Shown piece after piece: positions 15,828-17,833 of a stretch of 30,057 nt of DNA. The translations under genes and the position numbers were made by a program. The number at the start of each line of letters is the position of its first letter. The stretch's first letter is position 1. The notes beneath the pieces are model-generated. The model saw only the letters and a list, made by a program, of their open reading frames with translations. It had not been told where the DNA came from and ran no database searches. The stretch is taken from contig CALUTA010000001.1 in NCBI GenBank assembly GCA_944323585.1, positions 1 to 30,057 on the forward strand. Reading direction: 5' to 3'. This stretch comes from Candidatus Gastranaerophilales bacterium. Its GTDB lineage: Bacteria > Cyanobacteriota > Vampirovibrionia > Gastranaerophilales > Gastranaerophilaceae.

Positions 15828-15933
15828 AATTTCTATTTTATAACAAAATTATATATATGCAATTAGATAGAACATTTGATGAATATAAATTTTTGTTTCC
15901 TATTATAGATTATTAATGAATAAGGAGAGCAAA

Positions 15934-16170
15934 ATGCCAGATTTATACATACTTGACTCTTGTCCATACTGCAAAAAAGTTATGGAATTTCTTGATGAAA
16001 ACAACATACCATACAAAAAATTAGACGTATCAGAGCCTGAAAATTACGATAATCTTCAAAAAATCGGCGGAAAATCACAAGTGCCTTTTCTTTATGACAA
16101 AGAAAAAGACTTAAAAATGTACGAGTCTGATGACATTATAGAATATTTTAAAAACAGAGAACAGGTGTAA
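15934..16170 (+). CDS. Glutaredoxin-like protein
   Basis: CPYC active site, GGKSQVPFL (cis-Pro), MYESDDII. ATG at 15934 follows AAGGAG. Confidence 0.88.
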   Translation: MPDLYILDSCPYCKKVMEFLDENNIPYKKLDVSEPENYDNLQKIGGKSQVPFLYDKEKDLKMYESDDIIEYFKNREQV

Positions 16171-16171
16171 T

Positions 16172-17782
16172 ATGTTTTTTAATAAGCCTAAATTAACAGG
16201 AAATGATTATAATGAATGTGTTGCAAGAGGCAGCTGTGCTGTTTCGCCGGAAATCAGAGCCATACAGGAAGTGATTCTGCTGTTTACTCATCAGCTTGCT
16301 TTTTACGAGCTGGTGCATGAGGAGCATAATATTTCTTATTTTGAAAATAAAGAAACTCTTATTGACAGCATTATAACGCTTATATCAACTTCCGAATATA
16401 CTCACGACCAGCTTCTTGAAATCGTAAGCAGGATATATTCAAAACTCCTGTATGCAAGAAAAGAGTATCTGAATTTCTGTACCGAAAATAATATAAAATG
16501 CAATGATATCAGACTTTCTTTCAAACTAAATCCTGAAATGACATTGAATGAAATCATAAAATCCGGCGAAAAAGTCTTTCTTGAAAAGTATAAAAAAATA
16601 TCTCTTCAACAAAAAAATCTTCAGGATATTCTAATAATTGCAGTGAAAAGTCTTTGCACAAATTTACTTAAGCTTAAAGAATTTAACAAATTCGATGACT
16701 CTGCTTATAAAGATATTCTGAGAGCTCTAAATTATCTGAATTACAGACGCATATCCTCCGTAAAGCTAAAAAGCATTACAAATAAACTGACACAGGATGA
16801 TATAAAGCTTGTAACCCTTCTTGCGGAAGCACAAAGTGCAAAATTCGGACCAATAATCAAAACTGTAGTATCACTTTCATCTGCGCAGGGCAAAGCAATA
16901 CTTGTCTCAGGCTCTAATCTACAGAATCTTTATGACATACTAAAAATCACAGAAAACACAGGAATAGACATCTATACTCATTCTGACCTTATGATAGCAC
17001 ATGCCTTTGAAAAGTTCCGACAATTTCCGCACTTGAAGGGTCATTTCGGAAGCTGCTACAGCAACTGCATAGTAGATTTTGCAACATTTCCGGGGGCAAT
17101 TCTTCTTACAAAAAATACTTTTCCTAATGTTGACTATCTTTACAGAGGAAAATTGTTCTCTGCCGAAGAAATTCCGCCTAAGGGAGTTTTGCAGATTAAA
17201 AACAATGATTTTACCCCCCTGATAGAAGCGGCTTTAAGTTCTAAAGGTTTTACCAAGGGGCGCGAAGTTGCACCTGTCACAGTCGGCTACGTGGAAAAAG
17301 AACTTGGCGAAAAATTGGACAATATCTGCACTCGTTTTAACAATCAGGAAATCCATAACCTTATAATTATCGGGATGTCAGATTTTTCAGGAATTCAGGA
17401 TGAATATTTTAGGAAATTACACAAACTCCTTGAGCCGAATACCTATGTGATAACATTTTCGCACCACAGCAGTGACAGAGAAAACGAATTACATATAAAT
17501 CTGGTTAATAACCTTCCTGCTGTCTATGGTATTATGCTGAAGATATTCCAAAAAATAGATATTGCTTCGGAAAGGCTGGCATTTTTTCTCACCAAATGTG
17601 ATCCGGGGGCTATTTCAAACATGGTTAACATGTATAATGCAGGCGCAAAACAAATTTTCTTATCCCAGTGCCCGTCTTACATAATTAATCCTAATATTCA
17701 AGGAACACTTAAAAATTTATACGGTATAACACCAACTACCAATCCGCAAAACGATCTTGCTAAAATTTATAAAACATTATAA
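16172..17782 (+). CDS. Hybrid-cluster protein (Hcp/prismane)-like protein with degenerate metal ligands
   Basis: Colinear with Hcp throughout (ECVARGSC..SPE...IQ, ILVSGSNL, TGIDIYTHSD, HLKGHFG, FPGAILLTKN, INPNI...L...YGITP), but the ligand positions are substituted. See findings. Confidence 0.85.
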   Translation: MFFNKPKLTGNDYNECVARGSCAVSPEIRAIQEVILLFTHQLAFYELVHEEHNISYFENKETLIDSIITLISTSEYTHDQLLEIVSRIYSKLLYARKEYLNFCTENNIKCNDIRLSFKLNPEMTLNEIIKSGEKVFLEKYKKISLQQKNLQDILIIAVKSLCTNLLKLKEFNKFDDSAYKDILRALNYLNYRRISSVKLKSITNKLTQDDIKLVTLLAEAQSAKFGPIIKTVVSLSSAQGKAILVSGSNLQNLYDILKITENTGIDIYTHSDLMIAHAFEKFRQFPHLKGHFGSCYSNCIVDFATFPGAILLTKNTFPNVDYLYRGKLFSAEEIPPKGVLQIKNNDFTPLIEAALSSKGFTKGREVAPVTVGYVEKELGEKLDNICTRFNNQEIHNLIIIGMSDFSGIQDEYFRKLHKLLEPNTYVITFSHHSSDRENELHINLVNNLPAVYGIMLKIFQKIDIASERLAFFLTKCDPGAISNMVNMYNAGAKQIFLSQCPSYIINPNIQGTLKNLYGITPTTNPQNDLAKIYKTL

Positions 17783-17786
17783 AAAC

Positions 17787-17816
17787 AAAAAATCCCGCCA
17801 TATGACGGGATTTTTT
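17787..17816 (-). terminator. Intrinsic terminator after rpsG, probably bidirectional
   Basis: Minus strand reads AAAAAA-TCCCGTC-ATAT-GGCGGGA-TTTTTT. Confidence 0.8.
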
Positions 17817-17833
17817 ATTATATTAATCAAGAA

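Follow-up and report, generated by a model that had tools for sequence, protein, structure and literature searches.

A Hybrid Cluster Protein Paralogue Without Cluster Ligands Is Encoded Together With a Glutaredoxin in Gastranaerophilaceae

Introduction

The hybrid cluster protein (Hcp) is among the most widespread stress enzymes of anaerobes, and its chemistry is thought to depend wholly on an Fe-S-O cluster. The activities reported for it are those of an S-nitrosylase, an NO reductase, a hydroxylamine reductase and a peroxidase (PMC13056359, PMC10210160). Here, we describe an Hcp-like protein in which the ligands of this cluster are lost and whose gene directly follows a gene for a glutaredoxin. 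Both genes reside in a stretch of 30,057 nucleotides from a Candidatus Gastranaerophilales bacterium of the gut melainabacterial family Gastranaerophilaceae (NCBI GenBank assembly GCA_944323585.1, contig CALUTA010000001.1, positions 1 to 30,057 of the forward strand), which is the whole stretch of DNA that was analysed and is referred to as the window. The gene for the Hcp-like protein occupies window positions 16172–17782 on the plus strand.

The closest described relatives are class I Hcps, such as those from Desulfovibrio vulgaris (PDB 1E1D/1E2U), D. desulfuricans (1GN9) and Methanothermococcus thermolithotrophicus (8CNR), which resemble the protein studied here in length and three-domain fold and share with it the scaffold motifs VSG, YTH, G.YG and FPGAIL.T as well as the invariant residues Y412 and D528. 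All seven ligands of the hybrid cluster, which in the enzyme from M. thermolithotrophicus (MtHCP) include Cys402, Cys455 and Glu490 (PMC10210160), and the first two cysteines of the N-terminal cubane are lost, whereas C103, C476, C500, R325 and H291 are newly conserved. Class I hcp genes mostly stand alone (PMC10210160, PMC13056359), while the gene in the window has an obligatory-looking glutaredoxin partner. In this respect, the locus resembles that of the class II Hcp from Escherichia coli (7DE4), for which a dedicated redox partner, the NADH reductase Hcr, is likewise encoded next door. However, the partner here is a thiol-disulfide glutaredoxin and not a flavin/[2Fe-2S] reductase, and the Hcp-like protein has no clusters to accept electrons.

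The active-site cluster can be remodelled or lost, with the scaffold kept, in the superfamily that comprises carbon monoxide dehydrogenase (CODH) and Hcp (PMC13056359). Its ligand-poor members, i.e., CODH-V of clade D with a hybrid-like cluster (7B7Q) and degenerate 'mini' CODHs, are matched by Foldseek with a template modelling (TM) score of about 0.5 and still bind Fe-S clusters, whereas the Hcp-like protein is without a plausible complete ligand set. R773-type ArsC, glutaredoxin-dependent peroxiredoxins and 3'-phosphoadenosine 5'-phosphosulfate reductase are unrelated to it in sequence and fold and provide a functional analogy only. In such glutaredoxin-coupled thiol enzymes, the glutaredoxin recycles a catalytic cysteine or cysteine pair and can do so with its N-terminal cysteine alone, and the genes for enzyme and glutaredoxin are linked.

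Current surveys recognise three classes of Hcp and filter for intact clusters (PMC13056359). The most recent one, which covers 1545 proteins in classes I–III, applied a screen for the key clusters, and glutaredoxin is not mentioned in it. Because of such filtering, a cluster-less family has probably been discarded or mis-annotated as hydroxylamine reductase. Our search of about 8.4 million papers and preprints returned neither an account of a cluster-less Hcp nor one of an Hcp–glutaredoxin pair.

Results

The Hcp Fold Is Retained

The reading frame at 16172–17782 is uninterrupted and encodes 536 amino acids. Its product matches the Prismane family of Pfam (PF03063) over residues 19–385 with 78.7 bits (4.8e-22, gathering cut-off 27) and is collinear with the hydroxylamine reductase models of NCBIfam over residues 13–533. 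On the latter, it scores 188.6 bits against a cut-off of 360.8 (TIGR01703) and 205.3 bits against a cut-off of 367 (NF003658) and hence stays below the equivalog threshold for hybrid cluster protein/hydroxylamine reductase; canonical Hcp paralogues of related organisms reach about 690–790 bits on the same Hcp model. In phmmer searches, the best sequence match in the PDB was E. coli Hcp (7DE4, 6.4e-33), and class I and class III Hcps were also matched. A look-up in the ESM Atlas returned only Prismane clusters from Melainabacteria.

An AlphaFold2 (AF2) model built from a 126-sequence alignment reached a mean predicted local distance difference test score (pLDDT) of 90.3 and a predicted TM score (pTM) of 0.90. 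Foldseek aligned this model with TM scores of 0.81 to 1E1D/1E2U, 0.80 to 7DE4 and 0.76 to 8CNR, and the superposition on solved class I and class II Hcps spans the whole length (about 535 columns) at an identity of 18–20%. The protein thus adopts the three-domain Hcp fold in the model. The low confidence of residues 1–21 (pLDDT below 50) was considered as a sign of the lost cubane site and rejected as uninformative, because the fold of a canonical control Hcp from a genome of the same genus (G007) shows the same.

The Ligands of the Hybrid Cluster and Half of Those of the Cubane Are Lost

The ligand columns were read from a computed alignment with 15 canonical Hcps of the same order and from phmmer alignments to 7DE4 and 8CNR. 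None of the seven ligands of the hybrid cluster, i.e., one His, two Glu and four Cys including the persulfido-Cys, is kept. The ligand His of the SGHD motif corresponds to S248 (SGSN), the Glu of THGE to D272 (THSD), the Cys of TTNC to T316 (TKNT), the persulfido-Cys of GGCD to S403 (GMSD), the Cys of LACG to H431 (FSHH) and the Glu of WYEQ to D477 (KCDP), while the Cys loop GQCND is represented by the Cys-free NLVNN. An earlier note on this DNA, made from the sequence alone, had listed altered ligand motifs within an uninterrupted 536-residue frame, and every one of these changes reappears in our alignments. The protein has ten cysteines in total (residues 16, 22, 103, 110, 162, 295, 299, 386, 476 and 500) and none between residues 387 and 475. 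The equivalents of canonical C406, C434 and C459, three of the four Cys ligands, can therefore not be rescued by realignment, which disposes of the concern, raised in the same note, that a better alignment might restore the ligands.

Of the N-terminal cubane motif CxxC-x8-C-x5-C, only the last two cysteines persist as the relic C16-x5-C22 (ECVARGSC, 16217–16237, plus strand), the first two positions being taken by N4 and by K/L. The protein lacks the complete set of four cysteines characteristic of the [4Fe-4S] cubane, and this cluster has very probably been lost, too.

Where the ligands used to be, residues vary within the family (top-residue frequencies of 0.34–0.73), with the exception of D477. 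On the other hand, the shell of the pocket is still constrained, as columns conserved to at least 90% (n = 74) are enriched within six residues on either side of the former ligands (23 observed versus 12.6 expected, p = 9e-4). Domain 2 is the best conserved part of the family. The hybrid cluster has been discarded, whereas the fold has been kept and the surroundings of the former active-site pocket have retained their architecture.

Sister families of the same order contain other Hcp paralogues that are independently and only partly degenerate (L048:2583-4223, L049:675-2324, L034/L035 and L036-L038, from genomes G060, G056, G044, G050, G055, G059 and G049). Those of G056 and G060 retain the four N-terminal cysteines, the first Glu and two Cys ligands, whereas the His, two Cys and the last Glu are gone. 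No adjacent glutaredoxin gene accompanies any of these sister-family paralogues. Ligand loss seems to have occurred repeatedly among Hcp paralogues of the Gastranaerophilales.

A Family-Wide Paralogue Under Purifying Selection

When the Hcp model was searched in 60 relatives, two types of protein emerged. A low-scoring type (about 170–230 bits) occurs in nearly all family genomes, and of the 36 family genomes with this type, 14 have a canonical hcp (about 690–720 bits) as well, namely the same-genus genomes G002, G007 and G012 and 11 others; a further genome, G033, showed the canonical hcp only. No canonical hcp was found in the window's own genome, which is 88% complete. Since the congeners G002, G007 and G012 carry both types, the gene in the window is a paralogue and not the degraded sole copy.

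A separate search with the protein itself as the query returned full-length copies in 110 of 124 sampled Gastranaerophilaceae genomes (at least 214 bits, identity 26–100%), and a single in-frame stop is present in 7 of 111 matches. Outside this family, only canonical-type matches with at most 161 bits were obtained. In a phylogenetic tree, 33 cluster-less sequences form one clade (SH-aLRT 100) apart from the canonical clade. Among 1.8 billion cluster representatives, 111 clusters were retrieved at E ≤1e-30, most of them of the cluster-less type (about 100 at 50% identity).

The ratio of non-synonymous to synonymous substitution rates (dN/dS) was calculated for unsaturated pairs (dS 0.09–0.39) and amounts to 0.108 (dS 0.085), 0.069 and 0.080, compared with 0.049–0.066 for canonical hcp of the same genus. 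The gene is under strong purifying selection and not in neutral decay. The earlier note had supposed a selected protein, and with dN/dS values of 0.07–0.11 and full-length copies throughout most of the family this supposition stands. These results leave next to nothing for pseudogene decay or for an artefact of annotation or alignment, an explanation that could invoke only the low scores on the Hcp equivalog models and that conflicts with the Cys-free segment 387–475, the low dN/dS, the open full-length frames in 110 genomes with so few in-frame stops, the confident AF2 model and, as a weak hint, RNA-library contigs that cover the gene.

The copy number varies. The gene is tandemly triplicated behind a single CPYC glutaredoxin gene in G031 (L044:2582-7825) and duplicated in G334 (G334:C12:18460-21642). 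Genera g47, g50 and g51 (e.g., G252, G280, G284 and G023/L047) have shorter and more divergent derivatives of about 470–530 amino acids, in which the match is limited to residues about 11–400 and the C-terminal domain has diverged further.

Newly Conserved Residues and the C476/C500 Pair

Residues conserved specifically in the family, as compared with canonical Hcp, are N4, S23, C103, S160, H291, D302, R325-G326, N443, C476, D477 and C500. Across 150 family members, C16 is conserved in 99% and C22 in 97%. In the family, C476 and C500 are conserved in 97% each and D477 in 91%. C103 (16478–16480, plus strand) lies at the end of a helix formed by residues 78–105 in the AF2 model, at a position that is variable or deleted in canonical Hcps, and C110 (16499–16501, plus strand) is kept in about 70% of the family. 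In the pair C476-D477 (TKCD, 17597–17602, plus strand), D477 takes the position of the ligand Glu in WYEQ and C476 replaces the preceding Tyr. C500 (SQCP, 17669–17671, plus strand) replaces the Thr of canonical GPTLP. Of the different cysteines listed in the earlier note, those of TKCD and SQCP are thus conserved in the family, whereas those of GSCYSNC (C295/C299) are conserved in only 43–59%.

C476 and C500 co-evolve and have been gained and lost together. Among 237 cluster-less homologues, 205 have both, 24 have neither and 8 have one only, and across nine phylogenetically independent contrasts for C476, C500 changes in the same direction in about 6 and in the opposite direction in about 0.3 (independent-pairs sign test, median p = 0.03). 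No evolutionary coupling was seen between any two of C22, C103 and C476, and these three have been lost independently of one another. For co-inheritance of C16 and C22, the same trend was seen at p = 0.125, a test without statistical power. Some family members have only 4–5 cysteines in total.

The AF2 model places both residues in a beta-alpha-beta unit (strand 469–473, helix 478–489, strand 494–497), 2–3 residues past the strand ends. Because each follows the end of one of two consecutive strands of the same unit, C476 and C500 are predicted to lie next to each other, on top of the sheet formerly carrying the cluster.

The Glutaredoxin Partner

The upstream gene (15934–16170, plus strand) encodes a glutaredoxin with a thioredoxin fold, a CPYC-type site and a cis-Pro. 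It matches PF00462 with 44.8 bits (1.4e-11, cut-off 22.9), GST_N_3 with 1.2e-15 and the NCBIfam model for Grx2 with 2.2e-12, so that its identification as a CPYC glutaredoxin in the earlier note was sound. With its QVPF and YESDDII motifs, it belongs to a short, GST_N/Grx2-N-like form, and its best NCBIfam likeness is to the Grx2 N-domain. In the alignment of partner glutaredoxins, the first active-site cysteine (C10), P11, V50 and P51 are invariant. CPYS variants have appeared in at least five genera (g1, g6, g8, g42 and g43), and the resolving cysteine is therefore dispensable, so that the conserved chemistry needs the nucleophilic cysteine only. Such a requirement is characteristic of glutaredoxins that de-thiolate mixed disulfides by a monothiol mechanism. 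The partner has also kept the E-S motif (within YESDDII) of the glutathione S-transferase (GST) type, a motif that binds the gamma-glutamyl group in GSTs.

In 21 of 31 genomes of a first sample and in 17 of 20 further genomes from other genera, the gene directly before that for the Hcp-like protein, on the same strand, encodes a glutaredoxin fold. The total is 38 of 51 genomes from 16 genera, and these genomes represent the crown clade as well as deep branches of the cluster-less clade. The coupling to glutaredoxin, noticed earlier in this one locus, is therefore conserved in many other genomes of the family. Two types of glutaredoxin fill the upstream slot, the short GST_N/Grx2-N-like form here and in most genera and a classical form (TVPQI...GG.D) in G022, G024, G026, G031 and G314. 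The classical form is 38–42% identical to the product of a second, unlinked glutaredoxin gene of the window's genome (G000:C118:59-319 (L057); CPYC, 86 amino acids, TVPQI...GGY.D), and this unlinked glutaredoxin is closer than the window's partner to the Hcp-linked glutaredoxins of deep-branching genera. A correlation between adjacency of the glutaredoxin gene and presence of C476/C500 was looked for and not found, and the predicted complex of the Hcp-like protein with the glutaredoxin has an ipSAE of 0.03, a value that speaks neither for nor against an interaction.

Organisation of the Two-Gene Unit

The longest open reading frame for the glutaredoxin spans 15916–16170 (84 amino acids). A start at ATG 15934, giving 78 amino acids, is more likely than one at 15916, because AAGGAG is located 5 nt upstream and orthologues have 75–80 amino acids. 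The cysteine codons of CPYC are at 15961–15963 and 15970–15972. At the junction (16163–16174, plus strand), a Shine–Dalgarno-like AGGTG (16163–16167) is embedded in the last glutaredoxin codons, followed by the stop codon TAA (16168–16170) and the ATG of the Hcp-like gene at 16172. The spacer of 1 nt, as already noticed, is matched by spacers of 1–8 nt in all 14 same-genus loci. A hairpin at 17784–17819 resembles a bidirectional intrinsic terminator, with a 16-pair stem and T run on the minus strand and an 11-pair stem and T run on the plus strand; it closes the two-gene unit and is common to it and the convergent rpsG-rpsL genes.

Upstream of the glutaredoxin gene (window 15840–15905; same-genus loci L014-L023, L053 and L056), two motifs are present genus-wide. 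The first, TTATAACAAAATTATATATATGCAA, adjoins a divergent wecB-like gene, and the second, GGGAATAWAAA, is located about 45–60 nt before the glutaredoxin start codon. These motifs may be promoter elements or an operator; a promoter scan of the locus yielded a number of sites not above that in shuffled sequence. Contigs from gut RNA libraries (chicken gut and others) cover parts of both genes at 92–100% identity, and two of them span the junction. As such contigs cannot show transcription or a single transcript, they provide a weak hint at expression of the gene pair.

Thiol Metabolism of the Host

The window's genome encodes thioredoxin reductase and a homologue of glutamate-cysteine ligase that scores 281 bits, below the cut-off, on the plant/cyanobacterial-type model (G000:C39). 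Glutathione synthetase was not detected in this 88%-complete genome, and glutathione is thus at most a candidate for its low-molecular-weight thiol. The window itself contains, at 28399–29766 on the minus strand, a gene for a 455-residue flavoprotein similar to CoA-disulfide reductase and H2O-forming NADH oxidase (411 bits versus a cut-off of 579).

Discussion

The picture that emerges is that of a functional, selected paralogue of class I Hcp that has no cluster and that possesses a dedicated thiol-transferase partner, and this much is well supported. What the protein does is probably thiol chemistry rather than Fe-S chemistry, as far as its residues and gene context can tell. We lean to this role because a co-evolving cysteine pair is located at the old site and because the partner has only its nucleophilic cysteine invariant. 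Specifically, we give about an even chance to a thiol-based redox protein or enzyme that works at the old pocket via C476/C500 and is recycled by the glutaredoxin. Cysteine thiols would then take over the chemistry from the metal cluster. C476 and C500 would sit close together in space, in domain 3, where two successive parallel strands have their C-terminal ends and where Glu494 once bound the cluster. The pair would cycle between thiol and disulfide, or become S-thiolated, while acting on its presumed substrate, a small oxidant or a client, and the co-translated glutaredoxin would regenerate it as the putative reductant. For the glutaredoxin, a monothiol mechanism with a gamma-glutamyl thiol is proposed, because only the first active-site cysteine is invariant.

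A bolder version of this proposal is tentative. The Hcp scaffold, with its buried pocket and channel for gases and small molecules, might have been turned into a metal-free cysteine reductase in which C476/C500 stand in for the cluster and in which NO or S-nitrosothiols, hydroxylamine or peroxide are detoxified with electrons from glutaredoxin and a gamma-glutamyl thiol and not from ferredoxin or Hcr. The role as an S-nitrosothiol partner of the glutaredoxin, which the earlier note had put forward, is a conjecture compatible with the data.

Several points weigh against a thiol role of C476/C500. The proximity of the two cysteines and their exposure to the old pocket are deduced solely from the topology of the predicted fold, and two cysteines could just as well be metal ligands together with a nearby Asp, His or Tyr. 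In thirteen genera, the gene is without an adjacent glutaredoxin gene, and G022 and G024 have the adjacent glutaredoxin yet lack the C476/C500 pair. Searches for glutathione synthetase (gshB) in the 88%-complete genome found none, and the gene neighbourhood points to no substrate.

The possible role of the cysteines as ligands leads to the alternative of a re-metallated protein, either with mononuclear Fe, Zn or Ni at C476/D477/C500 or with a small Fe-S cluster at C16/C22/C103(/C110), that serves as a metalloenzyme or as a carrier of metal or cluster. Five cysteines are conserved to at least 96% and D477, H277 and H291 are conserved as well; C476 and C500 show the covariation expected of co-ligands, C16 and C22 stand where the cubane had its ligands, and the CODH/Hcp superfamily is known to remodel its clusters, for example in ChCODH-V (PMC13056359). 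Nevertheless, we consider such a protein unlikely. The independent loss of C22, C103 and C476 speaks against a joint cluster with three or four Cys ligands, as does the small total of cysteines in some members, and the replaced ligand positions have remained variable and have not been re-fixed. Furthermore, the partner is a Pro-containing CPYC/CPYS glutaredoxin, and glutaredoxins of this kind do not bridge Fe-S clusters, unlike those of the CGFS or CSYC types.

About equally unlikely is a non-catalytic scaffold, i.e., a true pseudoenzyme that acts as a redox sensor, a regulator or a binding partner of the glutaredoxin or of the clients of canonical Hcp, with the cysteines as a redox switch. 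The catalytic and cofactor residues of the parent are all gone while the fold is retained under purifying selection and conserved across species, the gene occurs with or without a canonical hcp in the genome, and up to three copies are found in tandem. However, conservation surrounds the old pocket and does not form a surface patch, as judged by sequence, and there is no linked regulator, DNA-binding domain or obvious client gene. That nearly every family genome retains the gene, and that its dN/dS is as low as for genuine Hcp, points to a demanding function, and the cysteine pair conserved at the old site speaks for the possibility of a new activity. The earlier note had also suggested a chaperone role, said to have been reported for E. 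coli Hcp; our full-text literature search returned no paper that reports such a role for the hybrid cluster protein. Our guess is a mix-up with the unrelated Hcp of type VI secretion.

Whether it is a thiol enzyme or a pseudoenzyme, the protein would represent a clear natural case of a metalloenzyme fold that is re-used without its metal. The small size, solubility and easy expression of the gene pair make the question accessible to direct tests. A whole bacterial family keeps a cluster-less Hcp that is coupled to a glutaredoxin and that is selected as strongly as genuine Hcp, which offers a handle on the redox and nitrosative-stress physiology of the uncultured gut Gastranaerophilales. If the protein is indeed a metal-free cysteine reductase, it would stand in for Hcp in gut Melainabacteria as an enzyme that spares iron and is insensitive to oxygen.

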